Positions 5,059 through 49,999 are shown, numbered from the stretch's first letter. The stretch is DNA of 64,000 nucleotides from a virus (IMGVR_UViG_3300018876_000008:64001-128000); one strand, 5' to 3'. Program-made: numbers and translations. Notes: a model not told the origin generated them from the sequence alone.

Positions 5059-5628
5059 ATGTCACGTATTATATTAAAAGAAGAAGAAAAACATTATATA
5101 CAAAAACTGTATTTACTTGAAAATGATACGGTAAGGAAAGATGGTACTAAAATGAGGGCTAGTCAAAACTTTTGGGATTTTATAAAATTCGAAGAAGGTG
5201 ACCCTAAGAAACCTGTGGGTTCTATCAAAGAACCTGTACTTAAAGCTTACAAAGACACTAGTGGTATTTGGACTATAGGTTATGGTCACACAGGAAGTGA
5301 TGTTAAAGAAGGGTTAGTTATAACTAAACAACAGGCACTTAAATTATTATACTCCGACGCAACTATTTCCGCAGATTGTGTTAGAAGATTTTTAAGTGAA
5401 TGGAAAGATAAAGGTTTAAAAACTTATATGTTAACACAAGGAGAATTTGATTCATTGGTTTCATTAGTTTTTAATTCAGGATGTGATTCAGTGAGGATGT
5501 CAAGATTTATTCAATACCTTAAATCGGGTCAAAATAAAAAAGCGGGAGAAGCTATTCTAAAATACAAAGCCAATAATTCTGGTTTAAAGAATAGAAGAGA
5601 AAAAGAAAGTAATATGTTTTTATCATGA
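5059..5628 (+). CDS. Phage lysozyme (GH24) with N-terminal leader
   Basis: FEEG...AYKDTSGIWTIGYGHT and FDSLVSLVFNSG; start reassigned to ATG 5059 after terminator and promoter motif. Confidence 0.85.
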   Translation: MSRIILKEEEKHYIQKLYLLENDTVRKDGTKMRASQNFWDFIKFEEGDPKKPVGSIKEPVLKAYKDTSGIWTIGYGHTGSDVKEGLVITKQQALKLLYSDATISADCVRRFLSEWKDKGLKTYMLTQGEFDSLVSLVFNSGCDSVRMSRFIQYLKSGQNKKAGEAILKYKANNSGLKNRREKESNMFLS

Positions 5629-7880
5629 AAAAATTAATTAAAGAATCGGGACTAAGGAATATGAAGGCGTTAGCCGACAGATATAAAAAGGCTAAAATTT
5701 ATTTCCACCAAGATTTAGACGGTGTTACAACTGCCTTAGCTATGAAAAATTATTTAGAAGATAACGGAATTAAAGTTGTTGATTCTGAGATAATACAGTA
5801 TGGTGATAAAGAGTTCACTGTTAAAAAACAAGACGCTCAAGGAGATACTATGCCGGTTTTAGTTGACTTCGCCCACGGTAAACCAATGTTTGTTGTCCAC
5901 ACGGACCACCATGATAGTCAAACAGGTGTTGAAGATGAGACTTCAACTTCTTTCAGGTCATCAAGGTCTAATGTTGAAACCTTATCGCAGATAATGTCTC
6001 CAAAAGATATTTTTACTTCTGATGATATAAGGTTAATATCTACAGTTGATTCTGCAGATTTTGCGAAGTACGGATTAAAACCTAAAGATATTATGAATTT
6101 TGTTTTTAAACTTCAAAAAGACGAATCATTACAAAAAAATAAAACAGCTTTAGGATTGGCGACTAACAAATTAATGTTAGCCTATAAGAATAAACCTGGA
6201 TTTATGGAGGAATTAGTTATGACTTCTAACCCATCGTTGTTAAATATATTTCAAAATATTAATAGAATCGCGGCGGAGAGAGGATATGCCCTTCCTGATG
6301 AAATGGATTTAAATCAAAAAGATTACATTCAAAAACAAAAAGAAAGTGAAAAAGTATATGTGGACGATAATATTATAGTTCAATATGGTGGAGGTTCAAT
6401 GTTTAAACCAGGTTCTTATGATAGATACACACCATTTGAAAATAACCCTGACGCTGATTTCTTAGTTATTGCTTGGCCTATGGGATTAGTACAAGCATCT
6501 TGTAACCCATTTAAAAAAGAAAGAGAACTAAAAGGTGTTAATTTAGGTGAGATTGCTCAAGAAGTGTTAAGTAAATGGGAGAGTCAATTAAAGGATAAAA
6601 TAATTCCATTATCTACAATAAAGTGGATATCTGAAGGTAACAAACAATTTGGTGATGAATCAGTTGGTTTTACAAATGCAGATTTAGAAGCATTTTATGG
6701 TGATAAAGTACGTTCTATTGATGGTGGTGATGAATATATGGAAAAGTTAAAAGACATCATGGATACACCTTCAACTCAATTAACGGAAGACCAGTGGGCA
6801 ATATTAGACAAATTAGGTGTACCTGCGTGGGAAATGATTCAAGCAAACTCAGGAGGACATAAATGTATTACTAATATATCGGCACTTAATTATTTCGGTA
6901 GAGGTAAGAGAAAACCTGAAGGTAAATATAAATACAATAAAGATAAAGGTGACTCACCTTATGTTAAGTTTACTAAAATGATTCAAAATGAATTTGTTAG
7001 AAAACTTAAAGAAAAGATTAATGAATCTAAAAATTTAAATGAATCGGTTTTAAATGAAGCAATAGGTTTTATATTTCCAATTGGTAATGAAGAATTCAAT
7101 GTTGGTTATGATTCCTCAGGATTAGGTAGAGGTAAGAAAAAAGTATTAGATAAAGACGAGGCGATTCATAATAGTGATTATGGGGCAGGTGACGCTAAAC
7201 ATCAACACAGAGGAGGACATTTAGGAATTGATATATTTGCACCTAAGGGTACTCCAATTATTTCAGCTACGGATGGAGAAGTGATTAAAGTTAGAAGAAA
7301 AGATAGAACTACTGGTGGTAAGACAGTTAGTGTATTATTAAATGGTATAGTTTATTATTATGCACACTTAGACCAAGTATCTGATAATATAAGTAAAGGT
7401 GACGATATTAAAAAAGGCACATTCATAGGTACAGTTGGTGATACAGGAAACGCTAAAGGAACCCATCCACACTTACACTTTTCGATGTATGAGAAAAGAG
7501 GTGGGTATAAAAGAGGAACTATTGACCCATGGCCATTTTTAAAAGATAGTCTTGATGGGGGAGATTTAATTGTTATTGAACCAGGACAAGTTGTTGATAA
7601 AGTTGAGGGAAAAATTGCACGTGAAGATTTAAGTATTACGGATATTGTTAACAACGGTGATAACTCTGAATTAATATCAATGGGTTCACAAGGTAAAGGA
7701 GTTGAAGAAATCCAAACAATTTTAGATAAAGAAGGTTACGATTTAGGGGATGCTGGGATTGATGGAATCTATGGTCCTTATACAATGAGAGCGGTTAAGA
7801 AGTTCCAAAAAGATAATGGTTTAAATTTGATTGACGGAATTGTTGGTATTGAAACGTCAACAGAATTCAAGAAACACTAA
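5625..7880 (+). CDS. Fusion: DHH-like phosphoesterase + M23 peptidase + peptidoglycan-binding domain
   Basis: YFHQDLDG/VDFAHG/TDHH/GGH; HLGIDIFA, YYAHL, HPHLHF; DGIYGPYT..AVKKFQ..NGL..DGIVG. Confidence 0.8.
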   Translation: MKKLIKESGLRNMKALADRYKKAKIYFHQDLDGVTTALAMKNYLEDNGIKVVDSEIIQYGDKEFTVKKQDAQGDTMPVLVDFAHGKPMFVVHTDHHDSQTGVEDETSTSFRSSRSNVETLSQIMSPKDIFTSDDIRLISTVDSADFAKYGLKPKDIMNFVFKLQKDESLQKNKTALGLATNKLMLAYKNKPGFMEELVMTSNPSLLNIFQNINRIAAERGYALPDEMDLNQKDYIQKQKESEKVYVDDNIIVQYGGGSMFKPGSYDRYTPFENNPDADFLVIAWPMGLVQASCNPFKKERELKGVNLGEIAQEVLSKWESQLKDKIIPLSTIKWISEGNKQFGDESVGFTNADLEAFYGDKVRSIDGGDEYMEKLKDIMDTPSTQLTEDQWAILDKLGVPAWEMIQANSGGHKCITNISALNYFGRGKRKPEGKYKYNKDKGDSPYVKFTKMIQNEFVRKLKEKINESKNLNESVLNEAIGFIFPIGNEEFNVGYDSSGLGRGKKKVLDKDEAIHNSDYGAGDAKHQHRGGHLGIDIFAPKGTPIISATDGEVIKVRRKDRTTGGKTVSVLLNGIVYYYAHLDQVSDNISKGDDIKKGTFIGTVGDTGNAKGTHPHLHFSMYEKRGGYKRGTIDPWPFLKDSLDGGDLIVIEPGQVVDKVEGKIAREDLSITDIVNNGDNSELISMGSQGKGVEEIQTILDKEGYDLGDAGIDGIYGPYTMRAVKKFQKDNGLNLIDGIVGIETSTEFKKH

Positions 7881-7886
7881 ATTATA

Positions 7887-8243
7887 TTAAATCAAAGAAA
7901 AGGAGACATTGTCTCCTTTTTTTATGCCGTGATTTTTACAGTATCTACCTTCAACTTCTAAAACTGTATTACCAAAACCTTGATATGACTCACAATTTTT
8001 ATTATCATTACACGGTTGACAGTTGGAATGGATTTCAGTTATTTCTGTTCCGTTAATAAAAATGATATCTAATGGTATTATACAGTTATACATCCAAAAA
8101 CTTTGTTCAGTGGTGTTTGGCATAAAAAATAACATACCATCAAAAGATTCGTCAAACTTTTTACCCATCATTCCTTTAGAAATGGAATCTGGAGTGGCAG
8201 AAACTTTGACTTTTAAAATATTATCATTTATTATTACTTTCAT
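7887..8243 (-). CDS. DUF192 family protein
   Basis: KGMM...GMLF...SFWM.NC.IPLDIIFI...VLEV; start reassigned to ATG 8243. Confidence 0.8.
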   Translation of the reverse strand: MKVIINDNILKVKVSATPDSISKGMMGKKFDESFDGMLFFMPNTTEQSFWMYNCIIPLDIIFINGTEITEIHSNCQPCNDNKNCESYQGFGNTVLEVEGRYCKNHGIKKGDNVSFSLI

Positions 8244-8271
8244 ACTAATAAATATACAATAAAAAGAATAT

Positions 8272-9045: not shown

Positions 9046-9049
9046 TCAA

Positions 9050-19017: not shown

Positions 19018-20838
19018 ATGAAAAAAACATTATTAACATTAATTACGGGATTACTCTTAATGGGTTGTTCCAACACGGAAAAACTCACATTTAATGAAAT
19101 GGTTGAGAAGACTGAAGAAGTAGCTTTAGGTATTGATAAGACCGCACTTTTTTATGAATCTAGCGCAACTAAAGAATTAAATGGAGTAAAATCAGTTTTT
19201 GCTGGTAAAAATAATACAACTATTGAAGTATTATGTACTTCTAACGGATTAACCAAATCTATAGTTATCAATGAACCCTTTTTAGAGGATGAGGTTATTA
19301 ATTTACCTGTTAAACTCACATTAGAGGAGGCTGAAGAATTATTATTAGAAGCAGGTTATGGTACTGGAGTTGAAGGTGAGGCGGATTGGTCTGTGGTAGT
19401 TTTAAGAAGACCATTAGGGCCAGATTTTGAATTCGCACAATACATTTTTACGACTAGTAAAGGTTTTGTAAGTGTGGATGCTACCACAGGTAAAGTCACA
19501 CCTGTAGGTTTAGAAGGTTGTCCATGTCCTTTTAAAGACCCATGTATATGTCCTGAAAGTAACTTATCAACTATGTCTAATCAAACATGGAAAAATACTT
19601 CTTCACAGGGTACTCTTAGAGTATCTCAAGGTAATCCACAATCGGGACATCAAGACTTTTCACCAGCAGTAGGTACTGAATTGGCACCAAATGGTACTTG
19701 GAATAATGTAAATGGAGGTGATTGGGCGTACTTAGTTTTAGATATATTAAACGGGACTACTTACCTTACTACTACTACAGTACATTTTACTGACCCTGTT
19801 GGTGGAGCTCCTTTAGACCCACCAGTATCAATGGATGGTAATAATAAACCTGATAGTGTTTTAACTTTTACTAAAGTAGGTGATAATTCATATGATGTTT
19901 CGTATGGTAAATCTTCTTATCCACCACCATACACTACAGGACTAATTGATTGGACAGGTGGTCAAACAGGTAAAAAACCTTTTAGTACTCCAGGTTCATA
20001 TTGGACACAAGACTATAATTTTGATGATACATTAAGATGGACATCTGACGGCACTTCAACAGTTCAGAGTACAAAACAAACAGGTGATTCAGTTTACGGA
20101 TACAATTATGGTAGTAGAGCGTACCCTGTTAATGTTTTAGATTCAGATATGAAAACTGATGACAGCGCTTATGGAGTTGCGATGGATGGAGTATGGCAAA
20201 TAGATATTAAAATAGGTTCCAATGGTGGAGGTACTTATCCTGATAGTTTATTTTGTGAAACCTTTTATTTGGCAGAAAGAAAAGTTATGATGTGGGATAA
20301 TAAATATTATTTGGACAACAGTCCAAAAGGTGGTTCACAACAATACTCTCAATACGGAAGAGAGATTGACATTATGGAAACTAAATGGCAACCTTCAGGT
20401 CCACAAGCAAATTTACCTAATGGTAATCCATCAGACCCATCAAGTCAGATGAGTTGGAATACTGAAGTATCTGGAACAAATGGATATAATAAATTAGAAG
20501 CAAAATGGGAGCAAATGTATAGTACATTCCCTAACCCAACTACATATGCTACATTTGGTATTGCAATTTTAGATGATGGGTTATACTTTTATGGTTATAA
20601 TGACAAAGGAACTCAAGTTTATGTAGACGGACCGATTGTATTAAAAAACGATGGGTATACACAAGAAAATCCATTCGTACCTTACATCGGTACTTGGACT
20701 AAGCAAGATACAAAAACAAAACCAGGTGTAGAAGGTGGATTTAGTACTTCATATAAAAACTTTATTTATAAGAAAAAAACAGAAGTATCTGGTAACCCAA
20801 TAACAAATAAGTCAGGTTTTGGACCAGGATTAAAATAA
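19018..20838 (+). CDS. Putative lipoprotein with GH16-like (ConA-fold) C-terminal domain
   Basis: Lipobox LMGC; GREIDIMETK matches the GH16 ExDxxE catalytic motif. Confidence 0.55.
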   Translation: MKKTLLTLITGLLLMGCSNTEKLTFNEMVEKTEEVALGIDKTALFYESSATKELNGVKSVFAGKNNTTIEVLCTSNGLTKSIVINEPFLEDEVINLPVKLTLEEAEELLLEAGYGTGVEGEADWSVVVLRRPLGPDFEFAQYIFTTSKGFVSVDATTGKVTPVGLEGCPCPFKDPCICPESNLSTMSNQTWKNTSSQGTLRVSQGNPQSGHQDFSPAVGTELAPNGTWNNVNGGDWAYLVLDILNGTTYLTTTTVHFTDPVGGAPLDPPVSMDGNNKPDSVLTFTKVGDNSYDVSYGKSSYPPPYTTGLIDWTGGQTGKKPFSTPGSYWTQDYNFDDTLRWTSDGTSTVQSTKQTGDSVYGYNYGSRAYPVNVLDSDMKTDDSAYGVAMDGVWQIDIKIGSNGGGTYPDSLFCETFYLAERKVMMWDNKYYLDNSPKGGSQQYSQYGREIDIMETKWQPSGPQANLPNGNPSDPSSQMSWNTEVSGTNGYNKLEAKWEQMYSTFPNPTTYATFGIAILDDGLYFYGYNDKGTQVYVDGPIVLKNDGYTQENPFVPYIGTWTKQDTKTKPGVEGGFSTSYKNFIYKKKTEVSGNPITNKSGFGPGLK

Positions 20839-21618: not shown

Positions 21619-22452
21619 ATGAAAAAATTACTATTATTAATGGGTTCACTACTATTAACTAGTTGTGGTGTACAATGGCAGTACAGTACCTTAAACCATG
21701 CGGGTCATAATCCAAAATACAATACAGTTATTAAATTACCTGATGATGTGGTTGTAGATACTTTAAGTTATTTTGATTTACAACGAAAACTTAGAAACGA
21801 TTTTGTCTTTAGACATAATTTTGCTCTTTACGCATCTAATCAACCTTATAATTGGTATTTTAACAATCCCATGTTTAATAGATACAATTATTGGTCACCA
21901 TTTAATTCCTTTGATTTTTATACTAACAGATATTGGTTTTGGAATGATTGGGCGTTTAATTATTCGTGGTATAGTCCTCATCGATGGTCTTTCTTTGGTT
22001 ATGACAGATGGGGTTATAATCACTACGGATGGAACAATTATGGGTGGAATAGTTGGGGTTGGAATGGATACTATGGTAACAATTGGGGTTGGAGACAACA
22101 CATGAATAATTATGCTTGGAATAATAGGTATAGAAGAAATACGGTATATGTGAATGGTAGAAGAGGACAATCTTCAATAATAGAATCAACTAAACGTAGT
22201 ATTAAGGTTGATAATAAAAGAGAAAGGATTTATATTAATAATAATAGTCGACCTAACATTAACAATAGTAGACCAAATAATAATAGACCTAACATTAACA
22301 ATAGTAGACCAAATAATAATAGACCTACTATTAATAATACTAGACCGACCATTAATAATAATAATACAAGACCAAGAGTTAATAATAGTCGTCCTGTAAT
22401 TAATCGAAGTACACCGACAAAAACAAATAATAATAGGAGGAGAAAAAACTAA
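21619..22452 (+). CDS. Bacteroidota-type lipoprotein with W/Y/G/N-rich core and NNRP low-complexity tail
   Basis: Lipobox LTSC; composition. Confidence 0.65.
   Translation: MKKLLLLMGSLLLTSCGVQWQYSTLNHAGHNPKYNTVIKLPDDVVVDTLSYFDLQRKLRNDFVFRHNFALYASNQPYNWYFNNPMFNRYNYWSPFNSFDFYTNRYWFWNDWAFNYSWYSPHRWSFFGYDRWGYNHYGWNNYGWNSWGWNGYYGNNWGWRQHMNNYAWNNRYRRNTVYVNGRRGQSSIIESTKRSIKVDNKRERIYINNNSRPNINNSRPNNNRPNINNSRPNNNRPTINNTRPTINNNNTRPRVNNSRPVINRSTPTKTNNNRRRKN
22250..22327 (+). repeat. 36 bp coding tandem repeat (2.2 copies)
   Basis: gacctaacattaacaatagtagaccaaataataata x2, encodes RPNINNSRPNNN. Confidence 0.85.
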
Positions 22453-22914: not shown

Positions 22915-23196
22915 ATGAAAAAAATATCAATACTATTTGTTTTACTAACATTTACAATGTTTTTATTTAGTTGTACTGCTGAACAAAGATATAAAAAACA
23001 TATTAAAGAGAGTGGACCGATTCCTCAACCTAAGTTTAGTGTTGAACTATCAGTATTAGATAGTGTAAGTGAAATCCTACACTGGGAAATTATTAATGAT
23101 ACTCTTCATATTTACACACAAAAAGATTCAATAAGAGATGAGTATGAAAGGTGGGAATATATAAGAAGTTTAGACCCTGAGGGCTGGGAGGAATAA
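22915..23196 (+). CDS. Putative lipoprotein
   Basis: Lipobox LFSC. Confidence 0.55.
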   Translation: MKKISILFVLLTFTMFLFSCTAEQRYKKHIKESGPIPQPKFSVELSVLDSVSEILHWEIINDTLHIYTQKDSIRDEYERWEYIRSLDPEGWEE

Positions 23197-23218: not shown

Positions 23219-23725
23219 TTAAATTAACTCGTCCTCATAAGGAATACCGTATAAGAAAGATTCACTATAGTCATAATTATCCGCCATCTTTTTCATAATG
23301 TCAGAGTCCTTAATTACATTATCATAAAAGTCTTTACCACGAGAAATAACATCAACCCTAAGGTCACCCCAACCATCATCACCAACATTAATACCTCTCC
23401 CACGGTCAGATGAGATATCCAAAGATGTGGATTTAAACATTATTATTTTCTCCAATAATCTAATGGCTTCAGATGGAACACCAGCAAAACGGTTAAGGTC
23501 CATTAAGTATTTTTTAACTCTTCGGTAGTCGTCATCTTTTTTATAGTCCAATAAGTCAACTACATACCAAAAGAAATCATCGGCACTAGTAACCCCTGTT
23601 TTTCTACTACCTGTTAACTTTTCTAAGTCATTATACATTCCGGTAATAACTTCACCTTTTTCAATAAGGTCTTTAGCGTTAATGGATTCCCTTAATACTT
23701 TTTTAATTAAGTCTTTATATATCAT
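23219..23725 (-). CDS. Hypothetical protein, DUF4240-like C-terminus
   Basis: DFFW.VVD and DDGWGDLR..VISRGKDFY; IKKVLRES leader. Confidence 0.45.
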   Translation of the reverse strand: MIYKDLIKKVLRESINAKDLIEKGEVITGMYNDLEKLTGSRKTGVTSADDFFWYVVDLLDYKKDDDYRRVKKYLMDLNRFAGVPSEAIRLLEKIIMFKSTSLDISSDRGRGINVGDDGWGDLRVDVISRGKDFYDNVIKDSDIMKKMADNYDYSESFLYGIPYEDELI

Positions 23726-24089
23726 ACTTATATTTCATATGTATGTCGACACTATCAATGTCAACGTCAAATGTTTTAGTGAACCAATCGGCTAATAAAT
23801 CTAACACTTTAGATTGTCTAAATCGTAAGTTTCTCATGAACAAAGATACCAAACTGTGTTGTAGTGATAAATAACCTGATTCATTCTCAACTACTTTTCC
23901 GTTCATATGTTTTGGTCCATAGTGTATATAATACATTAAAAACTTACCGCTTTTACTATAAAGGTCCCATCTAGTATTTCCGTAATCGTCAGTATCTCTC
24001 TTTCTTACTTCACCGCCTGCCATTTGTTCGGACATAAAGTTTTCAACTAAATCGAATAGCTGAGATTGTGAAATAATATAACGTGACAT
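23715..24089 (-). CDS. Hypothetical protein with IISQSQL leader
   Basis: MSRYIISQSQLFDLVENFMSEQ. Confidence 0.6.
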   Translation of the reverse strand: MSRYIISQSQLFDLVENFMSEQMAGGEVRKRDTDDYGNTRWDLYSKSGKFLMYYIHYGPKHMNGKVVENESGYLSLQHSLVSLFMRNLRFRQSKVLDLLADWFTKTFDVDIDSVDIHMKYKYDI

Positions 24090-24115
24090 ATAAAATACTT
24101 TTAATATAAATAGTT

Positions 24116-27392: not shown

Positions 27393-27720
27393 ATTCCCCC
27401 CCTATATGGGGGTAGGGGTTAAAATACCTTAGGAACCCCCCCTTATGGGGTCCCCCCTCCCTGTATGGGTCCCGTATCCCCCCTCCCCCTGGGGGTGTTT
27501 TGGGGTCCAAAAGGGGGTTCAATCCCGTAAATAAAATATGTACAGATTTCTATATAAAAATGTTTATAAAAATTTTTGGGAAAATTTGGAACTATTTACC
27601 CTTGTTCTATGTATGAGAGTAAATGTTACTTGTGTTTTCTAAAAGGGGACCCCTTATTGAAAAAGGGTCCCAAATGTTGAAACAAAATTTCTGGAAAATT
27701 TTTTGGTAAAATTGGATATT
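27393..27720. other. Poly-C/poly-G hairpin tract followed by phased A/T tracts (candidate pac/terminus/origin element)
   Basis: ccccccc-tatat-ggggg, accccccc-ttat-ggggt, ccccct-ggggg; then aaaatttttgggaaaatttgga repeats. Confidence 0.5.
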
Positions 27721-27740
27721 TATTATTAAACGAAATTATT

Positions 27741-28058
27741 ATGGGACAAAGAATAACAATAACAGAAGAACAAAAGGAACATCTACTTGGGATGCATGGT
27801 TTAAATGAACAACCATCTACAGGTTTTGAACGTAGTCTTGAACGTAGTCTTGAGAAAGATATTCCTAAAGGAGAGAAGATAGGTTTTTTGAGTGATGGTG
27901 AATTCAAAGACTTAATTGAAAAACTATCAAAGTGTGTAGATGAAGATGGGTTAAACAAAATGAAAAGATTAAGACCTGAACAGAAAAAGGAATTTGTTGA
28001 GAGAATGGAAATGGCTCTTGGTATTCACATTGATAGACCAGATAGGTCAAAGGGATAG
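27741..28058 (+). CDS. Hypothetical protein with ITITEEQK leader
   Basis: MGQRITITEEQKEHLLGMHGLNEQ; ATATTTAT at 27716. Confidence 0.65.
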   Translation: MGQRITITEEQKEHLLGMHGLNEQPSTGFERSLERSLEKDIPKGEKIGFLSDGEFKDLIEKLSKCVDEDGLNKMKRLRPEQKKEFVERMEMALGIHIDRPDRSKG

Positions 28059-29868: not shown

Positions 29869-30096
29869 AATATTATTTTTTATTAATTAGTTAATTGTAT
29901 AAAATTTTATTTAATCTTTGGTAGTATAATATAAAATTAATTTTAATAAGACAAGTCATCTATTAAAGTTTTTTGAAATATATATATTTGATGGAAAAAA
30001 GAAAAATAGATATTAGTAAGAGTTTATACGTAACAATTATGGTTGTGGTTTACATTTTATCAATTTAATGATATTTATAAATAAAAACGGTTTAAG

Positions 30097-30735
30097 ATGA
30101 AAAAAGTAATTAAATTAACAGAATCTGATTTAGAAAATATTATCCAAAAAGTTCTTACTGAAAAGACTATGGGAGAAGTGCCAGGTGAACATCCACTATG
30201 TAAAGTTAAGTGTAAGAAAAAAGTATTAGGTAAAGGTAATGTCGGTGTCGATGTTAAAATGGTACAAAGTGCTTTATCTAAGTGTGGATTTAACAAAGAA
30301 AAAGAAGGTGGTGGTATGAACGCCGGTTGTGGTAAAGACTACAAAAAATGTGACGGTAAGTTTGATGTTGAAACTCAAAAAGCTGTTCGTGAATTTCAAA
30401 AAGATAGAGGTATTACAATCGATGGACTTGTTGGACCAAGAACATTAGAAGAATTGACAAAAGGTCAAGACTCGTGTTTGGCACCTTTCAAATGTAACTG
30501 TAAACAAAAAACAAGAGGAGACAAAGAGGGTACTATTCCCGGCACAGGTGTTGTTCCCGCTCCAGGAGATAAGGTTTCAATAAGTTGTAAGAAATCAATA
30601 TCATGTTTTGAAAAACATAAAGACGCATGTGGATTAGCTAAATGTTTAGGAATATGTATACCTGACAATATGTGTAGTACTAAGAAAGATTATCCAATTA
30701 GTGACTTCCCACCAAAATATAGATTTGACGTTTAA
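30097..30735 (+). CDS. Peptidoglycan-binding-domain protein with LTESDL leader, Cys-rich
   Basis: G.DVKMVQSAL...DGKF..ETQKAVREFQ...I.IDGLVGPRT. Confidence 0.75.
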   Translation: MKKVIKLTESDLENIIQKVLTEKTMGEVPGEHPLCKVKCKKKVLGKGNVGVDVKMVQSALSKCGFNKEKEGGGMNAGCGKDYKKCDGKFDVETQKAVREFQKDRGITIDGLVGPRTLEELTKGQDSCLAPFKCNCKQKTRGDKEGTIPGTGVVPAPGDKVSISCKKSISCFEKHKDACGLAKCLGICIPDNMCSTKKDYPISDFPPKYRFDV

Positions 30736-31274: not shown

Positions 31275-31317
31275 GTTTTTCCATTTAACCGATATTTATT
31301 AATAAAACAATTAGACT

Positions 31318-31782
31318 ATGAAACATTTATTAAATGACATGAGCCAAGATGAAATGAATTCTATTCGTGAACAACATACTGGCGGTAAAGAATTAACAAT
31401 TGAGAATTTCTCAGAAATGGTTAACAAAAAATTAGGAGAAGTACCAACATTAGTTACTGAATCAGAATTAGAAGAACAAGGTTTAGGTGCTAGAATGAGA
31501 GCTAATAAAGAAGCTAGAAAACAATCTAAAGAAGCTAACAGAAAATACGATAATTGGGCACGTTCTAAAGGTAAAATACTTTCATACAACCGTGATTTTA
31601 TTAAACGTATTGGTAAATTTCAGGAACAACTAAAAAAAGATTACGTTATTGGTGACAGTTTAAAACTTAGTAAAGATTCACAAATGTTTGAAAAATATCT
31701 TAAAAGTGTTGACGATATGAGAAAGACTTTACAGGCCGCTGAAGAACAAATCAAAAAGTTAGAATTCGACCCTAACAAGTAA
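31318..31782 (+). CDS. Hypothetical protein with leader
   Basis: MKHLLNDMSQDEMNSIREQH; ATATTTAT at 31292. Confidence 0.65.
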   Translation: MKHLLNDMSQDEMNSIREQHTGGKELTIENFSEMVNKKLGEVPTLVTESELEEQGLGARMRANKEARKQSKEANRKYDNWARSKGKILSYNRDFIKRIGKFQEQLKKDYVIGDSLKLSKDSQMFEKYLKSVDDMRKTLQAAEEQIKKLEFDPNK

Positions 31783-31864: not shown

Positions 31865-32137
31865 ATGAAAAACTTACTTAAGATAGATGAGTCCGAGAAA
31901 AAAAGAATCTTAGGATTACATGAAAATGTTTTACCTAAAAAGGTAAACCTATCTGAACAATGGTGGGAAGAAGAACCACCAAAAGATAAGTGGCAATTAC
32001 TTGAAATGGACATTAGAAAAAGTATGGATAAGATAATTGATAACCATAAACATAATTGGGGAAATGACCAATATAATGTTATGGGTGCCATTGAAGAAAT
32101 AATGGAAGGTCTATTTCAAAAAGTACAAATAAGGTAA
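31865..32137 (+). CDS. Hypothetical protein with IDESEK leader
   Basis: MKNLLKIDESEKKRILGLHE. Confidence 0.65.
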   Translation: MKNLLKIDESEKKRILGLHENVLPKKVNLSEQWWEEEPPKDKWQLLEMDIRKSMDKIIDNHKHNWGNDQYNVMGAIEEIMEGLFQKVQIR

Positions 32138-35310: not shown

Positions 35311-35574
35311 ATGAAGAAAATTGTGGATTGGGTCTGTGGACTACTTAAAGATGAGAAAGGAACACCATCATCAAAAAGATTTATTGGTATAATATCAGGA
35401 TTATCACTTTGTGTGGCTTTATTTATCAATTTATACACAGAACAACCCGTTGAACCTACACTTGTACAAGCAGTCGCTGCGATTTGTATTGGTGGATTAG
35501 GATTAGCGTCTGCAGATAAGATATGGGGTAAACATAAGCCTTGGGGTGACAAGAATTCAAACGAACATGAGTAA
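35311..35574 (+). CDS. Small two-TM protein, holin-like
   Basis: D..G.PSSKRF motif then two TM helices; ATATTTAT at 35285. Confidence 0.5.
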   Translation: MKKIVDWVCGLLKDEKGTPSSKRFIGIISGLSLCVALFINLYTEQPVEPTLVQAVAAICIGGLGLASADKIWGKHKPWGDKNSNEHE

Positions 35575-36886
35575 AAAAATACAATTAACAGAACAAGAAG
35601 TGTCCTCAATTAGAGGATTATACCCATTAGTTAACGAAAAAGTACTTAATGAACAAAGTGTATATGAAAAAATTAAGAAATCTTATAGTGAGCCTTGTAG
35701 TGGTAGTAATGAAATAAAAAAACCTGTAGTAAATGTTAAGGTAGTATTTGATAAAGAGGGTATACCTATCAGGGCTAACTTTTTTTTAAAGGGATATTTT
35801 GGTGCCACTAAGAGTGCCGATGAAGTTTACAAATCAGCATTACTACAAATGAAAGAAAAAATATTCGCAGAACTAAAGGCTAAACGAGTTATAGGTAACT
35901 ATGATTTAGGTTTGGTCTTTATTAAAAAAGTTATAGGTTCTGCAAGTAATTTCTTAAATGGACCACTTCTTCCCACACATAGTTTGTACGGTAAACCTAT
36001 ATCACCTCAAGCTTTAACTCGTGAACCTTATAATAATTTACCTAAAGAAGGTGATTCTAATTGGAATAAAAATAAGGGATATGCTGATAGTAGATGGAAA
36101 AATATGGTTTCTTTTATAAAAAATAATGGAGACTCGATTGGTTTTTCTGTTGGAGAACAATTAAGAGACCCTAAAAATATTGAATCTAGAATCACAGACA
36201 CTGGTGGGTGTACTGACGAAAAAAGAGATATTAATAATTTCCCTAACCCTGGTCAATTTGTTGTCATTGAAGGCGTAATGAAATTAACTCCACAACCAAT
36301 GGACGATGATTTAATACAGCAATTAACCGAATGTGCTGAAGGACTTAAAATTATTGTAGGTTACTTTAATCAATCAATGAGTGCAATGGATACAGGTATT
36401 CGAATGCCACAAAATAGTAGGGGACATAAATGTGATTATGCCACATTTACTGTTTATTGTAACGATATTCCTGTAGGGGTATCAAATATGAATAACGGTG
36501 ACCAAAGAGTAAGAAGTAACAATCCAAAGGCACGTGTTGGAATAGACCAAAGTAACGTTAGATATAGAGCACCAAAAGCAGTCGGTGATACTGTCTACAG
36601 TCTAATAACGGTTGGTACTAAACAATTAGAAGAAATAATTAAAAAGAGTGCTAATGGTAGAGTGAAGATGAGAATTCAAGGAACTCCAAACACTTTATTA
36701 CGTCCGTCAACAAAAGGATATCATGGTGATGCTCCAATGGTATGCGCATATGTTGAAGAAGATAACGGAGATAAGAGAATAGTTTATGGACCTAAAGAAC
36801 CTTTTGGTGGTTCAGGAGATGTTGGACCAGGTAAGTCACAATCACTTGGTTCCTTTAATCCTTGTATAACGATAGATAAAGTTTAA
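35567..36886 (+). CDS. Hypothetical protein with LTEQEV leader
   Basis: MSKKIQLTEQEVSSIRGLYPLVNEKVLNEQ. Confidence 0.7.
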   Translation: MSKKIQLTEQEVSSIRGLYPLVNEKVLNEQSVYEKIKKSYSEPCSGSNEIKKPVVNVKVVFDKEGIPIRANFFLKGYFGATKSADEVYKSALLQMKEKIFAELKAKRVIGNYDLGLVFIKKVIGSASNFLNGPLLPTHSLYGKPISPQALTREPYNNLPKEGDSNWNKNKGYADSRWKNMVSFIKNNGDSIGFSVGEQLRDPKNIESRITDTGGCTDEKRDINNFPNPGQFVVIEGVMKLTPQPMDDDLIQQLTECAEGLKIIVGYFNQSMSAMDTGIRMPQNSRGHKCDYATFTVYCNDIPVGVSNMNNGDQRVRSNNPKARVGIDQSNVRYRAPKAVGDTVYSLITVGTKQLEEIIKKSANGRVKMRIQGTPNTLLRPSTKGYHGDAPMVCAYVEEDNGDKRIVYGPKEPFGGSGDVGPGKSQSLGSFNPCITIDKV

Positions 36887-37445: not shown

Positions 37446-37799
37446 ATGAATTGTTGGACAACAAAATTATTTAAACATTTTCAATCTTATTACGGTAAAG
37501 AAGTTAATAAGTGTCAAATAGCTTTTGAAAGTGGTGAATTTAAAAATATTATAGGTTCTATGTCAAGAACATTTATTATTGAACCTGAAGATTTTTTAAA
37601 TATCCTATTAGTTAAGACTGCACATTTTGGTAAGGAGTGTTTTAAAGATGACAAAATAGAAAGAATAAAACTTTATGATAAATGTGTTTTTATTGCCAAA
37701 AAATATAAAATAGATTTACCTAAAGATGTTGAAATGTTAATAGATGACAGAAAACAAAAAGTAGGATTGTTTAATAAACTAAAATCAATTTTTAAATAA
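37446..37799 (+). CDS. Hypothetical protein
   Basis: ATATTTAT at 37420. Confidence 0.6.
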   Translation: MNCWTTKLFKHFQSYYGKEVNKCQIAFESGEFKNIIGSMSRTFIIEPEDFLNILLVKTAHFGKECFKDDKIERIKLYDKCVFIAKKYKIDLPKDVEMLIDDRKQKVGLFNKLKSIFK

Positions 37800-38209
37800 T
37801 GAAAAAACAAGAAAAACAATACATCATTACAGAATCACAATTAAAAACGGTGATTAAAGACGTTATCAAAGAACAAGGTCTTTATGGGAACACTTCTGAC
37901 GTTGTTGATTACGATTTACCTGAATACTTATCCGATGTTATTATTTTAAGTAATTTAGAATCAATGAACGATGTTGAAAATGCGGTTAAAGAATTACATA
38001 AAAGACTTATGAGATTAGAAAAAGGTCTTGACACTGCAGGTTCACACCAAAAAGCTTACGGAACGGGTTTAAATTACGCTGAAAAAAATAAGAAAGATAA
38101 GAGGGATTTAGATAGGGATATCGAAGATAAAGCAGAGTCAGAAGAAAGAGATGAGGAACTAAGAAGAGAAATCGAAGCTCTTCAAAAGATGATTCAAAGT
38201 AATGACTAA
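37799..38209 (+). CDS. Hypothetical protein with IITESQL leader
   Basis: MKKQEKQYIITESQLKTVIKDVIKEQ. Confidence 0.65.
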   Translation: MKKQEKQYIITESQLKTVIKDVIKEQGLYGNTSDVVDYDLPEYLSDVIILSNLESMNDVENAVKELHKRLMRLEKGLDTAGSHQKAYGTGLNYAEKNKKDKRDLDRDIEDKAESEERDEELRREIEALQKMIQSND

Positions 38210-39961: not shown

Positions 39962-39991
39962 TATATTAAGTATTAGTTGATATTTATCTAT

Positions 39992-41071
39992 ATGAAACAG
40001 ATTAAACTTGTCAATGTATTAAAAGAATCGGTACAAGAAATGTACTCACAAGACAAAACATCATCGGGTGTGGGAGAACTTGTATTTGACAAAATTTGGT
40101 ACTCACAACAATATGGTAACTCGGTATACTTTTCAAATTTTGATAAATCCTTAGGTTCAGTTGCTAACAGTAGTAAATTAAAGTTAACTGATAAAAAAAC
40201 GGGTGAGGAATACATTTTTGATTCCGAAGATTTAAGAAGCACTAGAAACGGTAAAACATTATACATTCCTATGGGAGAGATTAAACAACTCTACCCAAGA
40301 TTACTTTCAGATTTATTAGATAAAGAACATAAAAATAAAAATGAAAACTTAAGTGTTAATACACTAAAAACAAAAGCCTCAGGAATACCTCAACTTATAT
40401 TAGATATTTTAAAAGAAGTGTACCCAAATAATTGGGGTAAGATTGACGAACCTGGATGTGAAACATTAGAAGGGGTCATCGATATCTTTCCCGCGATGGA
40501 AGGGGAAAGATGGTCTATACTAAATTTCTTCGATACTAATCCAGGTGTAATCAGATTATTATTAGAAAAATATCAGGACGAAAACGAGGATACTACATTA
40601 GAAGGATTCAAAGATTACCTAAGAGATAATAAGGATGAATTGTTCAGAGCTGACAGTCCATTCTTACAAACATTAGTAAAGAGAAACTTACAATCATTCG
40701 AAAGAGGGTGGAAGACCGAAGCAGAGGTCATAGACATCGTTAAAAGAGAGAATCCCGAACTAACTGATGAAGACTTTGTACAATACTGTTTAGGTTCAAT
40801 ACAAGACCGTGTAAGTGGTGTAGACTTTAAAGTTAAAGGAAAGGGTTACCAAACAAAACCAGCGTCTAAAATGGAAAGATTAAGAAACGGTGGTATAAGA
40901 GTACAAACTTATGGTATGAGAGATTGGTACAAAAGAAAACCTGAGATAGATTACATACTATATTCTAACGGTAAAAACATAGCCGTATTCCCTAACAGTA
41001 ACTATACAGTTTCGAAAGATGGTAAAACAGTAACACATTTCGGACCCATAGTTAAAGATTCATTTGTATAA
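39992..41071 (+). CDS. Hypothetical protein, possible C-terminal PD-(D/E)xK nuclease-like domain
   Basis: G..TE...QD...GVDF....YQTK; VLKES leader. Confidence 0.45.
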   Translation: MKQIKLVNVLKESVQEMYSQDKTSSGVGELVFDKIWYSQQYGNSVYFSNFDKSLGSVANSSKLKLTDKKTGEEYIFDSEDLRSTRNGKTLYIPMGEIKQLYPRLLSDLLDKEHKNKNENLSVNTLKTKASGIPQLILDILKEVYPNNWGKIDEPGCETLEGVIDIFPAMEGERWSILNFFDTNPGVIRLLLEKYQDENEDTTLEGFKDYLRDNKDELFRADSPFLQTLVKRNLQSFERGWKTEAEVIDIVKRENPELTDEDFVQYCLGSIQDRVSGVDFKVKGKGYQTKPASKMERLRNGGIRVQTYGMRDWYKRKPEIDYILYSNGKNIAVFPNSNYTVSKDGKTVTHFGPIVKDSFV

Positions 41072-46109: not shown

Positions 46110-46114
46110 ATATT

Positions 46115-46396: not shown

Positions 46397-46688
46397 CTAT
46401 TAATGGGTATTCTTTATTGATGTGTTTTAGTCTGTTCTCCAACCAACTATTATAGGTTTCATCACTTTCTAAAATACCGTACCTATTTAATGTATCCCTT
46501 AAAATTGAAACTTCATTTCTAATATCATCCATTAATTTCCAAATGTAGGGAGGGGCTTTACTTACATTCTGAATACTTACACTGGTATGGTTTGCGGATT
46601 GCAAATATTTTCTTAATTCAGTATACATTTCGACAATTTTATTGTCGGCTTTAGTTTTATCTAAAAATTTTTCCATTGAAGTACTCAT
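46380..46688 (-). CDS. Hypothetical protein
   Basis: ATATTTAT 4 nt upstream. Confidence 0.55.
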   Translation of the reverse strand: MSTSMEKFLDKTKADNKIVEMYTELRKYLQSANHTSVSIQNVSKAPPYIWKLMDDIRNEVSILRDTLNRYGILESDETYNSWLENRLKHINKEYPLIDERDD

Positions 46689-46708
46689 GACTATAAATAT
46701 AGTCGAGT

Positions 46709-46963
46709 TTATAAAGTATGAAGTATATTTTTATAAACTAATGAAAGATTTTCACCGCCAGTATTATTTTGATAAAATTCTAAATCTCCTGTATGTGTTG
46801 TGTCTTGAGACCAGTAAGTTTCTGTCTCATTTTTGATAGTTTCGATAGTATAAGTTTCTATATTATCAATTTTAAGTACGTTAAATATTTCAGTTAAATC
46901 CTCTTTTGTGAATTTACCGTGTATTTGTATCGTTTTAGTTTTTAAATCTAATGTGAATTTCAT
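46709..46963 (-). CDS. Hypothetical protein
   Basis: ORF. Confidence 0.5.
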   Translation of the reverse strand: MKFTLDLKTKTIQIHGKFTKEDLTEIFNVLKIDNIETYTIETIKNETETYWSQDTTHTGDLEFYQNNTGGENLSLVYKNILHTL

Positions 46964-47220
46964 TATTTTTCTTTAGTTTCTTTAGTTTCTATATTTTTAG
47001 TGAAACAATTACCTTCATTGATATTATTCCACAAATAGTATAGTAAAAAAACAGAAAGTAGTAAAGAAATTGATTCTACAATCCAAAATTCTTTGGAGTA
47101 ACCACATTCACTTATAATATAACCTTTAAATGTATCAACCACTGATAGTAGTGATAACCCAATAAAGATTAATATAACTTTTTGATACTTTAGACAAAAT
47201 TTTAAATGTTTGTTAAACAT
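46963..47220 (-). CDS. Small membrane protein
   Basis: Two TM segments; TATATTTG 4 nt upstream. Confidence 0.5.
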   Translation of the reverse strand: MFNKHLKFCLKYQKVILIFIGLSLLSVVDTFKGYIISECGYSKEFWIVESISLLLSVFLLYYLWNNINEGNCFTKNIETKETKEK

Positions 47221-47221
47221 G

Positions 47222-47845
47222 TTACAAATATACATCTAATGTGTCAGCATCAGTACTAAATTCGTCTATGAAATCCTGAGTGAATTTACCATCTTTTCTT
47301 AGATATTCAACAGGTATGTTACTAAAAACCCAATCTAAACAAAGTATAGCTACTAAATGCTTGTCTTTATCATATATCGGTACGGCGCAATGTCCTTTAG
47401 TTCCACTAGAATAAGCCAATGACCTCAAACCAATATCATTCATATCTTCGATATTTGGAAAATACATATTATTTTCCATAACATCTTTTATGTAACTAGT
47501 AAAACTAGTGATTAAATGATTTTGATTTTTTTCGGCTTTTCGTTCTAATCCATCAGAACATCTTTCATAAGTAATTGATAATTTTTGCATAGGTGAAGTA
47601 GTATAAAAACTACCACCATTATGAAATTGCCATATATATACTCTATCGGCGTTATATCTTCGCCTAACGTCTCTTATTGCGAGATGTACTATTTCATCTC
47701 TTTTGATTTGTTCCATTAGTTTTTCTTTAGACTTATTTTTTTCTTGTTTTTCTCTCATTTGTCTAAAGAAACCTGCACCAACTAAAGCGACAATAATTGA
47801 TGTTATAGAGGTTATTAAAACTTCCGTTATTCTTATCCAGTCCAT
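47222..47845 (-). CDS. TM + GAF-like domain protein (T4 gpT-like holin candidate)
   Basis: Single N-terminal TM; ADRVYIWQFHNG; AVPI...LVAILCLDW. Confidence 0.55.
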   Translation of the reverse strand: MDWIRITEVLITSITSIIVALVGAGFFRQMREKQEKNKSKEKLMEQIKRDEIVHLAIRDVRRRYNADRVYIWQFHNGGSFYTTSPMQKLSITYERCSDGLERKAEKNQNHLITSFTSYIKDVMENNMYFPNIEDMNDIGLRSLAYSSGTKGHCAVPIYDKDKHLVAILCLDWVFSNIPVEYLRKDGKFTQDFIDEFSTDADTLDVYL

Positions 47846-47878
47846 TAAATCGTAATTTATATCTTATAAATATGTGGT

Positions 47879-48118
47879 TTAGAGGACTTTTTTTGTTTTT
47901 TCAACTCTTTTAGTCCCAAAATTTACTTTGTACCACAATCTCTCGTGTATAAAATAAAGAATCATCTTGGTTACAATCTCAAATGAACCGATAGTTAAAC
48001 CAATTAGTGGGTCACCTGAAACAAACCATCCAATTAACATTGTGTCAATAGTACCTACAATTCTCCATGTTATAGTTTTTAGTAGATGTCTTTTTACTGT
48101 TACTTTTGTTTTTACCAT
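47879..48118 (-). CDS. DUF2061 family membrane protein
   Basis: RHLLKTITWRIVGTIDT...KMILYFIHERLW. Confidence 0.85.
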   Translation of the reverse strand: MVKTKVTVKRHLLKTITWRIVGTIDTMLIGWFVSGDPLIGLTIGSFEIVTKMILYFIHERLWYKVNFGTKRVEKTKKVL

Positions 48119-48189
48119 ATAGTATAAGTATCTAAGTAAAAAATACTAAGTAAATAAATCCCCCACAATTAGGTGAGGGATTTAAAAAA

Positions 48190-48861
48190 TTACTTCTTAC
48201 TACGAATCACCTCATCGATAATTCCATACTCTAAAGCCTCTTCCGATGATAACCACAAATCACGGGACGCATCCTGTTTTACTTTTTCGGGGTCTTTATC
48301 ACAAAATTCACCAAGTAGGTTAAATAATGTGTCATTTAGTTTAGTCCATTCTTTCATTGTAATTTCAGCATCTTGAATGTTACCTACCGCACCTCCCGAT
48401 GATTGATGTAACATTGTACGAGAAAATCTAAGTGATGAACGTTTACCTTTAGTTCCCGCTCCCAATAGAATTGAACCCATAGATGCCGCCATACCTGTAT
48501 TTACTGTAACAATATCAGATTTAATGTAGTGCATAACATCGACCATTGAAAGTCCTGATTTAACCGAACCACCAGGTGAATCAATATGCATCGTTATATC
48601 CATATTATCGACAGAATCTAAATACATAAGTTGTGCTTGTACCACTGTTGACATTGCGTCATTAACAGGTCCTGCAACCCATAAAAGACGGTCTCTCATT
48701 AATCTTGAGAAGATATCTAATTGTACTGCCCTCATCTCTCTTTCTTCTAAAATGTAAGGGGTCATAGAACCCTCAAGTTCTTTTTTAATGTGATGCATTG
48801 TTAATGAAGATAAATTATGTTCACTCATTGCATACTTTTGAAAATCTTTTCCGTAATCCAT
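48190..48861 (-). CDS. clpP: ATP-dependent Clp protease proteolytic subunit
   Basis: DIFSRLMRDR, IDSPGG, GMAASMG (Ser), MLHQ (His), RDLW (Asp). Confidence 0.95.
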   Translation of the reverse strand: MDYGKDFQKYAMSEHNLSSLTMHHIKKELEGSMTPYILEEREMRAVQLDIFSRLMRDRLLWVAGPVNDAMSTVVQAQLMYLDSVDNMDITMHIDSPGGSVKSGLSMVDVMHYIKSDIVTVNTGMAASMGSILLGAGTKGKRSSLRFSRTMLHQSSGGAVGNIQDAEITMKEWTKLNDTLFNLLGEFCDKDPEKVKQDASRDLWLSSEEALEYGIIDEVIRSKK

Positions 48862-48934
48862 ATTTTTTTAATTTTAGTTCTACCGTTATATTTATAGTAA
48901 CAAAGGTAAGTAAAAAAAACCAAATAGAAAAGAT

Positions 48935-49999
48935 ATGAGTTTAAATTTGAAAGAAGCTGCTGGAGTACCTAAAGGTATTGTTGATGCGGGTGAAAAACTA
49001 TATAATGATTTTAAACAAAAGGTAGTTCCTATGTTAAAGGATGGTCAAACTGAATATGAAGTTAATTTTAAACCATCAGAACCATACAAAATAGGTGATG
49101 AAGAAATTAGTGATGTTGAGATTAATTTAACCCTTAGACCTGATAGCGATAGTTATGGGGAAGCTAACATGCAAGTATTTAGAAAAAATACTTTGAAAAA
49201 AGTTGGTAATGAATATGTTCTAATGAAGGTTAATAAGAATGGTAAAGTTATATTAACTATTGATAAACCTGTACCTGAAGATTGGAATGTAAAAGATGTG
49301 ATAAATTCTATTAATAACTCAAAAGTTCAAACAGTTAGCGCCTTATCACACGAATTAAAACATGAGTATGACGATTTAAAAACACCTCATATGGGAGTTG
49401 AAAAAGTTTCAGAATATCAATCAAATACTGAAATGTTTAACTTTCCAATTGCGCCAATCCAAAGAATGTTTTTTGATTTATATTATTTAGATGAAATAGA
49501 AAATTCAGTTAGACCCACGGAACTTTATGCTAAATTAAAAACTTTAGGTATAGGTAAATCAGGATTTTTAGATTACTTGAAAAAAGAATATTTCATTATT
49601 ATGGAATCTATGAGATTTAGTGTTAATGAAATGATAAAGGAAATATATGGTAATATGAATTCAGTTGATGAGTTATTAAGTCAGGTAGATGGTTTAGGGG
49701 TACCTGTTTCTGAACTTAGTGACGATGAAAAAGTAAATTTAGTTTTGAGGATTGCTTATATATCTGCGTCTAATACTCGAAGACAGAATTATGGAGACTC
49801 ATTAGTTGACAATGATATTGAAACTGAAATAGGGTTTTTCGGAGACAAAGCCGTACAATTTGATAAGTATGAAAAAAGTTTTGGTAAGTACGAAGAAGAT
49901 ATTATGAAATTTTATCAAGACATCGAAAAATACTTAAAAAGAAGTTCCGCAAAAGTTATGAAGAAACTAGGGAAAGTTTATTCTCTACTCCCTGACTAA
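48935..49999 (+). CDS. Hypothetical protein with HExxH motif
   Basis: LSHELKHEYD; MSLNLKEA leader. Confidence 0.55.
   Translation: MSLNLKEAAGVPKGIVDAGEKLYNDFKQKVVPMLKDGQTEYEVNFKPSEPYKIGDEEISDVEINLTLRPDSDSYGEANMQVFRKNTLKKVGNEYVLMKVNKNGKVILTIDKPVPEDWNVKDVINSINNSKVQTVSALSHELKHEYDDLKTPHMGVEKVSEYQSNTEMFNFPIAPIQRMFFDLYYLDEIENSVRPTELYAKLKTLGIGKSGFLDYLKKEYFIIMESMRFSVNEMIKEIYGNMNSVDELLSQVDGLGVPVSELSDDEKVNLVLRIAYISASNTRRQNYGDSLVDNDIETEIGFFGDKAVQFDKYEKSFGKYEEDIMKFYQDIEKYLKRSSAKVMKKLGKVYSLLPD

Follow-up and report, generated by a model that had tools for sequence, protein, structure and literature searches.

Recurrent N-terminal leaders on unrelated proteins of an uncultured phage as likely T4-style capsid-targeting propeptides

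In T-even phages, a conserved targeting sequence is found on diverse internal proteins and is removed by the prohead protease gp21 (PMC3012670, PMC9026906). The capsid-targeting sequence (CTS) of T4, M-K-T-Y-Q-E-F-I-A-E (PMC8442874), is carried by IPI, IPII, IPIII and Alt, and has hydrophobic residues at P7, P4 and P3. T4 gp21 cleaves after L/I-x-E, the T4 targeting sequences span 10-19 residues, and in IPIII residues 4 and 7, corresponding to P7 and P4, serve targeting and residues 8 and 10 processing (PMC9026906). The polymorphic ip loci of T-even phages, in the account of Repoila et al. (1994) as cited in PMC3012670, hold diverse cargo genes that have the targeting leader in common. Furthermore, in phiKZ, 201phi2-1 and SPN3US, gp21-related proteases cut head and ejection propeptides, often of more than 100 residues, at S/A-x-E (PMC5694885, PMC9026906). 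Here we analyze N-terminal leaders encoded in a 64,000-nucleotide window, namely bases 64,001-128,000 of the 169,337-bp IMG/VR virus record IMGVR_UViG_3300018876_000008 (approximately 31% G+C). A sequence-only reading of this window had proposed that about 15 otherwise unrelated proteins start with one shared leader, which would load them into the phage head for injection. The leaders are real and recur on unrelated proteins: approximately 19, of 12-25 residues, are present, on otherwise unrelated late proteins, in the 177 kb of sequence available for this phage, that is, the record plus an overlapping contig, L011. We consider it likely that they are capsid-targeting propeptides in the style of T4.

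All N-termini cited in the sequence-only reading are indeed present, and its eight main examples (starting at 5059, 12269, 24089, 27741, 30097, 31865, 35567 and 37799) are supported throughout. The seven shorter versions it listed fared unevenly: those at 31318 and 23725 hold and that at 39992 is borderline, while the N-termini at 5625, 15769, 45199 and 48935 do not score above chance. This leaves 10-11 leader proteins in the window out of the approximately 15 claimed, with four of the 15 cited members unsupported. Outside the window, further members start at genome positions 26590 (minus strand), 39015, 135223, 142313, 143018, 144327, 150675, 161131 and 168729. A loose core pattern is approximately 13 times denser within the first 15 residues of the proteins (13/3,285 positions) than elsewhere (14/47,736), and when N-terminal 30-mers were compared all against all without any motif, 15 pairs scored at least 40, versus 1-5 in internal and shuffled controls. 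Leave-one-out scoring with a hidden Markov model (HMM) gave 8 bits or more for 7 of 16 leaders, where shuffles predict 0.15, and a once-iterated HMM, run with shuffled and reversed controls, recovered 17 leaders in this phage and 16 in the relative G001, a 199-kb contig taken whole, whose proteins have a median identity of 78% to those of this phage. As such, the enrichment check suggested alongside the original claim came out in its favor, the motif exceeding shuffled, reversed and internal controls. Further HMM rounds were discarded, having drifted into an over-sampled orthogroup of a 244-aa post-portal protein, and the first-round set was kept; leader membership of this 244-aa protein is doubtful. 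Could the leaders merely reflect chance or composition, in an AT-rich genome whose N-termini are rich in Lys, Ile and Glu? The G+C content of approximately 31%, the frequency of M-K-K-type starts, and the four cited short examples that do not exceed chance would fit such an artefact. However, the shuffled, reversed and internal-segment controls are clearly exceeded, and a model whose training was confined to this genome picks up N-terminal leaders on a variety of proteins from related contigs, so that the probability of an artefact appears close to negligible.

The leaders do not conform to the single motif originally described. Clustering of the N-termini instead separates two related long types (A and B); in all, no fewer than two long types exist, next to short ones. 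Type A resembles I-I-T-E-S-Q-L, followed by about ten residues and then V-I-x-E, and type B resembles I-T-E-E-E-K-x-x-I-L-G-L-H-x-L-N-E or E-I-x-R-I-K-x-x-M-G-L-L-N-E. For the short leader at 23725, an independent type-C model, trained on short lysozyme leaders from other genomes, gave 16.1 bits against a shuffle maximum of 9.9. No hydrophobic region following a basic N-terminus, as in Sec or lipoprotein signals, was found in the leaders, which are acidic, polar and lack a hydrophobic stretch. Genuine signal and lipoprotein N-termini cluster apart from the leaders, both in this phage and in the cultured Flavobacterium phage immuto (MW353176, 160 kb), and thereby provide a useful positive control. 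Such Bacteroidota-style peptides, with a hydrophobic run and then Gly-Cys or Ser-Cys, are encoded at 18316-20838, 21619-22452 and 22915-23196 of the window and at L008:13656-14222; judged from these peptides, the phage proteins would fit a Bacteroidota-type host.

A gp21-like prohead protease, for which the sequence-only reading had suggested a search, is encoded by this phage. A Peptidase_S77 search of the 169-kb record returned nothing; the record ends just before the protease gene, with a large terminase (TerL) and a T4 gp20-type portal at its end. Contig L011 overlaps the last 4,929 bp of the record at 99.98% identity and hence represents the same phage. Beyond the overlap it encodes three small proteins, a 240-aa Peptidase_S77 protease (PF03420, E 2.7e-23), a scaffold-like protein and a 575-aa Gp23-type capsid protein (Gp23, E 1.2e-72), and the head gene order matches 20-(67/68)-21-22-23 of T4. 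The protease aligns with T4 gp21 (PDB 5jbl) and is conserved in 45 relatives, including the segments S-E-L-N-H-P-E-S and G-V-S-S-R-G-V-G-S. Near its own N-terminus it has the sequence G-I-L-(I/V)-E, also conserved in relatives, and T4 gp21 bears a comparable L-I-E in this region (PMC9026906). Leader genes lie within the head module itself, upstream of TerL as well as between portal and protease, where T4 has gp67/gp68; one of the three small L011 proteins, a portal-proximal protein of 126 aa, carries a type-A leader. The scaffold-like protein (L011:5825-7435, 536 aa), encoded between the protease and capsid genes, is extremely acidic and contains tandem repeats of approximately 19 residues resembling E-E-Y-G-G-K-K-G-D-D-S-K-S-H-K-D-Y-E. 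A late protein of 361 aa (L005:12521-13606) begins with one half of a type-A leader and carries a complete copy further inside, at approximately residues 142-164; it may be a core protein that is cut at several sites, as are T4 gp22, gp67 and gp68.

The leaders do end in hydrophobic-x-Glu, the predicted cut site, and this motif has a set position. In 28 of the 53 distinct leaders its Glu lies exactly 13 residues past the core Glu, and in 40 of the 53 within +11 to +17, far above the 10.1 predicted from shuffled tails. A profile was built from 86 distinct sites, in which P4, P5-P8, P11 and P1' are positions that the choice of sites did not fix. Leu, Ile or Val occupies P3 in 94% of the sites, leader lengths range from 10 to 30 aa, and hydrophobic residues occupy P4 in 85%, P7 in 51%, P8 in 55% and P11 in about half of the sites but P1' in only 5%, with mostly Lys or Arg at P5/P6. 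A hydrophobic stripe is thereby visible at P3, P4, P7/P8 and P11, in a pattern like that of P3, P4 and P7 in T4. The capsid protein carries a similar site: its residues 1-60 are near-invariant in 16 relatives and end in an invariant L-I-N-E followed by A, directly behind which lies the most variable stretch of its N-terminal region, and L-I-N-E/A is where the maturation site falls on alignment with mature T4 gp23*. Several type-B leaders end as this inferred maturation site does, and in the immuto capsid protein the corresponding position reads Q-I-V-S-E, then A. A family of cargo proteins of 136 aa, with 73 distinct N-termini, has an invariant Glu25, always Ile, Leu or Val at P3, and a free P2, and indels vary the length of the helix. 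In an orthogroup of 26 members upstream of the terminase, approximately 45 N-terminal residues are conserved with the motif at one aligned column, after which the sequence turns hypervariable. These data bear on whether the leaders might instead be docking helices that act independently of the protease and attach the proteins to something else that they all bind (a component of the tail or baseplate, for example, or a chaperone or the membrane), with hydrophobic-x-Glu being a helix feature. While the leader is predicted, with low confidence, as a short separate helix, and late co-expression would suit any virion-associated role, a docking helix leaves the invariant Glu, the free P2 and the hypervariability right behind the motif unexplained. 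Moreover, the inferred maturation site of the capsid protein has the same ending, the phage has a protease of the family known for cutting this motif (PMC9026906), and one and the same lysozyme cargo bears leaders that differ widely in length and sequence yet all finish with the motif. We therefore deem a docking helix unlikely.

The portability of the tag, likewise proposed from the window, is apparent from exchanges of both leaders and cargoes between relatives. The 439-aa cargo at 35567 has a type-B leader in this phage and a type-A leader in G001; the two proteins are 55% identical overall, and align from the first conserved Cys onward. Conversely, the 438-aa protein at L008:15018-16334 has only its first 53 residues in common with its G001 counterpart, and the next syntenic gene combines a like leader with an unrelated cargo, so that two loci keep the leader and replace the cargo. 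The lysozyme cargo, compared over 120 homologues, bears no fewer than six leader variants, including type A, type B in two forms, a short type C and the 10-residue type D, which has hydrophobic residues at positions 4, 7 and 8 and Glu at position 10, as in the layout of T4. Classical endolysins of approximately 142 aa among these homologues are leaderless, while all 67 of 67 extended homologues have hydrophobic-x-Glu shortly before the start of the cargo. Leader genes are not missing from the relative more often than other genes (about a quarter in both groups), and hyperplasticity is not claimed. Taken together, the data show leader and cargo, as far as sequence comparison can tell, evolving as independent modules.

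As had been noted from the window, the cargoes are not related to one another, apart from a PG_binding_1 domain that two of them have in common, and the conserved leader residues are encoded by varied codons. Neither paralogy nor a shared DNA cassette would account for this combination, which argues for selection at the protein level. The leaders could nevertheless be remnants of common ancestry, having arisen through duplication or recombination of gene starts followed by fast divergence, and having no present common function. Phage genomes do recombine at gene boundaries, the leader genes are grouped in two regions, and they have similar promoters. However, identity is often higher in the leader than in the cargo segment next to it (70% versus 30%), conserved leader residues are encoded by differing codons, the same cargo carries unrelated leader types across lineages, and the Glu is invariant throughout the 73 distinct homologues mentioned above. 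The conservation of the leaders, their codon variety, the exchange of types and the invariant Glu point to selection on the peptide, making mere ancestry quite improbable.

The phage itself is far removed from cultured ones. Megablast of the window against cultured phages gave zero matches, and the portal is approximately 26% identical to cyanophage g20 and 38% to those of Microcystis phage Mel-JY01 and Flavobacterium phage immuto, the latter value being the best for any cultured match. Portal loci related to this one number more than 598 in IMG/VR. CheckV estimates the completeness of the 169,337-bp record at approximately 56%, and since contigs bearing homologues of its genes measure approximately 290-310 kb, the full genome is probably jumbo-sized. 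Immuto has the same head-gene order. A search of its genome with the leader profile gave no matches, with a positive control on the phage's own record working, while a motif-free N-terminal test yielded 19 pairs scoring at least 40, versus 1-3 in controls. Immuto has two leader families of its own, located on 8-9 unrelated proteins with hydrophobic-x-Glu, several of these inside the head module (L121:1803-2318; L126:2250-2825, 2836-3315, 3762-4310, 13144-13902, 17587-18588 and 18588-18887; L127:3311-3532). For one of the immuto leader proteins, the GenBank annotation reads cob(I)alamin adenosyltransferase. The immuto families also speak to the idea that the leader serves as a recognition tag, such as a degron or unfolding signal, for the ClpA/ClpC-type AAA+ unfoldase of the phage. 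Clp ATPases recognize terminal tags, and this phage encodes a two-ring ATPase of the ClpA/ClpC type (673 aa) that adjoins a weak M42-type peptidase match (L009:6404-9588, minus strand), both being approximately 86-91% conserved in G001. Immuto, however, has leader families but neither a Clp homologue nor the M42-type peptidase, and a Clp tag would leave the fixed hydrophobic-x-Glu, the match to the capsid site and the position in the head module unexplained. We regard it as highly improbable.

The sequence-only reading had placed the leader genes in units headed by a common upstream motif, and this holds at the operon level: 15 of 18 leader genes lie in units headed by ATATTTAT, versus 74 of 210 other genes, and the remaining three have ACTATTTAT, which differs from it by one base. 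An exact ATATTTAT is located at most 60 nt upstream of 10/18 leader genes and of 30/210 other genes (p = 1.5e-4). Where a gene start on the same strand follows downstream, which applies to 66 sites, the motif lies upstream of it by no more than 60 nt in 40 cases. It is often followed by an A-rich run, e.g. A-A-T-A-A-A-A, and also heads the protease, scaffold and post-portal genes. Because it heads head genes and is enriched before leader genes, ATATTTAT is most likely a late or morphogenesis promoter, the timing being deduced from these positions. In the window, ATATTTAT is found on the plus strand before the lysozyme gene (5038-5045), before 12269 (12243-12250), 27741 (27716-27723), 30097 (30071-30078), 31318 (31292-31299, with 31865 downstream in the same unit) and 39992 (39980-39987), and the one-base variant CTATTTAT lies on the minus strand before 24089 (24106-24113). 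Besides the sites at 5038, 12243, 27716 and 30071, approximately 36 more ATATTTAT sites occur genome-wide. The sequence ATATTTATA includes the reverse complement of the T4 late promoter TATAAATA, an overlap that is probably coincidental.

So how might leader, protease and promoter act together? Late in infection, approximately 19 unrelated proteins would be made from ATATTTAT promoters alongside the head proteins. Their N-terminal helix, with its I-T-E-S-Q-L-like core and the stripe at P3/P4/P7-P8/P11, would dock them onto the scaffolding core of the prohead. After closure of the gp23-type shell, the gp21-family Peptidase_S77 would cut behind the Glu of hydrophobic-x-Glu, freeing the mature cargo inside the head, from where the lysozyme, peptidoglycan-binding and poly-lysine proteins, and many uncharacterized ones, would exit together with the phage DNA when the next cell is infected. 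In this scheme, attachment to the core, cutting behind the Glu, encapsidation and injection are drawn by analogy with T4. It is about an even proposition that this extends further, with uncultured marine T4-like jumbo phages of Bacteroidota as well as cultured relatives such as immuto using diversified and exchangeable tags, of at least six variants and ending in the cut site of the head protease, to load some 20 or more unrelated proteins per virion, the cargo comprising cell-wall hydrolases, membrane and peptidoglycan-binding proteins, and poly-lysine DNA-binding proteins.

We must however take into account several observations that weigh against capsid-targeting propeptides. The motif hydrophobic-x-Glu is short and common, so that single instances mean little. 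It is missing from its usual place in a few leaders: the 325-aa protein at L008:7223-8200 has no hydrophobic-x-Glu near its leader, and in the portal-proximal 126-aa protein the motif lies at +8. The amphipathic helix that had been claimed for the leaders did not stand up, its hydrophobic moment not being significantly above that of shuffles. The AlphaFold2 (AF2) model of the 136-aa leader protein, which has a leader helix at residues 12-23 followed by a disordered segment, is of low confidence (pLDDT 59.7) and gives a weak hint at best. Many cargoes are acidic (pI 4-5; the overall range is 4.1-9.5), and there are large ones, reaching 639 aa, and ones rich in Cys, whereas the internal proteins of T4 are small and basic. 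Lastly, the long type-A and type-B leaders (18-25 aa) have no detectable sequence similarity to the 10-residue T4 CTS and resemble it in pattern only; without such homology, they would be functional analogues or very distant relatives rather than demonstrable homologues.

The individual leader genes in the window vary in how firmly they are supported. Among the type-A members, the 99-aa protein at 12269-12568 (plus strand) has a 20-aa leader (12269-12328) ending I-K-E, then G, scores 17.5 bits in the leave-one-out test, and is 93% identical to its G001 orthologue. The 124-aa protein at 23715-24089 (minus strand) has a 21-aa leader (24027-24089) ending M-S-E, then Q, with 7.6 bits in the leave-one-out and 23.6 in the iterated scoring. 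The 212-aa PG_binding_1 protein at 30097-30735 (plus strand; Pfam 3.7e-13), rich in Cys (14 residues), has a 22-aa leader (30097-30162) ending L-T-E, then K, with a leave-one-out score of 19.4 bits, and its orthologue retains leader and Glu. The 136-aa protein at 37799-38209 (plus strand) has a 25-aa leader (37799-37873) ending I-K-E, then Q-G-L-Y-G. The predicted mature N-terminus of the latter (37874-37940; Q-G-L-Y-G, then D-V-V-D-Y-D-L-P-E-Y-L-S-D) is near-invariant in 73 distinct homologues, which suggests a functional motif.

Type B is represented by four proteins encoded on the plus strand. The first of these is the GH24 lysozyme of 189 aa (5059-5628; Pfam Phage_lysozyme E 7.8e-27, residues 61-183), with a leader of 21 aa (5059-5121) ending L-L-E, then N; its start at 5059 is confirmed by 189-aa homologues. 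The 105-aa protein at 27741-28058 has a 23-aa leader (27741-27809) ending L-N-E, then Q (leave-one-out 10.7 bits), and the 90-aa protein at 31865-32137 a 20-aa leader (31865-31924) ending L-H-E, then N (12.3 bits), with an orthologue that is 86% identical and keeps the Glu. The 439-aa Cys-containing protein at 35567-36886 has a 24-aa leader (35567-35638) ending V-N-E, then K (14.7 bits), with a second site, L-N-E followed by Q, six residues further on. A weaker type-B-like candidate is the basic 154-aa protein at 31318-31782 (plus strand), with an 18-aa leader (31318-31371) ending I-R-E, then Q. It reaches 20.4 bits in the iterated scoring and its N-terminus is conserved in G001; its leave-one-out score is only 0.1 bits, and its membership is therefore less certain. 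The short type-C leader at 23725 belongs to a DUF4240-like protein of 168 aa (23219-23725, minus strand; E 1.1e-5, just under the Pfam cut-off), and spans 13 aa (23687-23725), ending L-R-E, then S. The 359-aa protein at 39992-41071 (plus strand) has a 12-aa leader resembling type D (39992-40027), ending L-K-E, then S. At 8.6 bits, with approximately 7.1 being exceeded once per database, and 7.2 bits for the G001 orthologue, it remains an uncertain member judging by its score.

The claim that cell-wall enzymes are among the cargoes holds for the GH24 lysozyme, and PG_binding_1 proteins carry leaders as well. The lysozyme operon (5059-7880) has as its second gene a leaderless 751-aa M23 peptidase (5625-7880, plus strand; Peptidase_M23 2.4e-22, PG_binding_1 1.2e-14) with a weak DHH-like match at its N-terminus; the short leader cited for it scores below significance in the leader models. 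A separate Amidase_2 protein at L008:693-1544 is, by its domain, a candidate for the true endolysin. Together with two further PG_binding_1 proteins, the cell-wall-active set of lysozyme, M23/PG_binding_1 protein and Amidase_2 is unusually large. The two PG_binding_1 cargoes are the Cys-rich protein at 30097 and one with a hydrophobic block, namely the 438-aa leader protein at L008:15018-16334, in which this block is located at approximately residues 71-130 and PG_binding_1 at the C-terminus. The 639-aa leader protein at L008:16327-18246, for which a search of related loci returned no relative, has last residues (approximately 40) that are 67% identical to a small membrane-like protein encoded at 10030-10338 of the window. 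Another cargo is a weak EF-hand-like protein. Small poly-lysine cargoes occur in relatives and at the cut-off end of L011. These proteins, of approximately 85 aa, consist of a type-A leader ending V-I-S-E, directly followed by about ten Lys and a Cys-containing tail (L011:12583-12780, end cut off, L043:11085-11348 and L021:20056-20310, all three on the minus strand; and G001 48653, i.e. L113:8653 onward), and may be DNA-binding internal proteins. The remaining cargoes gave no matches in domain and homology searches, and a protein atlas search with the 413-aa cargo returned only viral hypothetical proteins, at scores equally reached by shuffled proteins.

Should the tags function as they do in T4, one could predict from sequence which proteins are injected by a large and abundant group of uncultured marine phages, the tag being a rule by which the injected arsenal is read directly from metagenomes. 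Such proteins likely include anti-defense factors, factors for host takeover and cell-wall-opening enzymes, on a scale that would far exceed the three internal proteins plus Alt of T4. The tags could also serve as handles for packaging foreign proteins into capsids of phages other than coliphages, and with immuto, which is cultured and carries analogous tag families, the idea is directly testable.

How then does this system compare to those already described? A literature search returned no paper describing such leaders in phages of this kind, nor, within the library searched, a virion proteome of immuto. Like the CTS of T4, the leaders are portable N-terminal tags on unrelated proteins, which end in hydrophobic-x-Glu and tend to have hydrophobic residues at P3, P4 and P7, in a phage with a gp21-family protease, gp20/gp23 and what appear to be late genes. 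In contrast to it, they are mostly 18-25 residues in length with an extra I-T-E-S-Q-L-like core, and come in at least two long and two short types. They are carried by approximately 19 cargoes in 177 kb instead of four in T4, among them cell-wall enzymes as well as proteins that are acidic, large or rich in Cys. The T-even ip loci, as far as the cited account describes them, are alike in that only the leader is common and stays in place while the cargo is replaced between relatives; here, leader types are also swapped on conserved cargo, in several regions instead of one locus, and in phages of Bacteroidota-type hosts instead of enterobacteria. With phiKZ, 201phi2-1 and SPN3US this phage would have in common its jumbo size, the cleavage of many head proteins behind Glu by a distant homologue of gp21, and a sizeable internal protein repertoire. 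Their propeptides are however long, unshared and cut at S/A-x-E, whereas the tag described here is short and shared, with Leu, Ile or Val at P3.

Two further systems offer partial parallels. T7 gp16, an internal core protein with a lytic transglycosylase domain, brings cell-wall activity inside the capsid and is ejected at infection, and as such is a precedent for a lysozyme-type cargo, but it is a large structural core protein for which neither a removable tag nor a gp21-type protease is known. The cargo-loading peptides of encapsulins are likewise short and portable, and direct unrelated cargo into an HK97-fold shell; unlike the leaders, they are usually C-terminal and uncleaved, bind the shell itself, and are not known from viruses. 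The principle is known from T-even phages, and what differs here are the longer leaders with their extra core, their interchangeable types, the number of cargoes, the presence of cell-wall proteins among them, and the Bacteroidota-type hosts.

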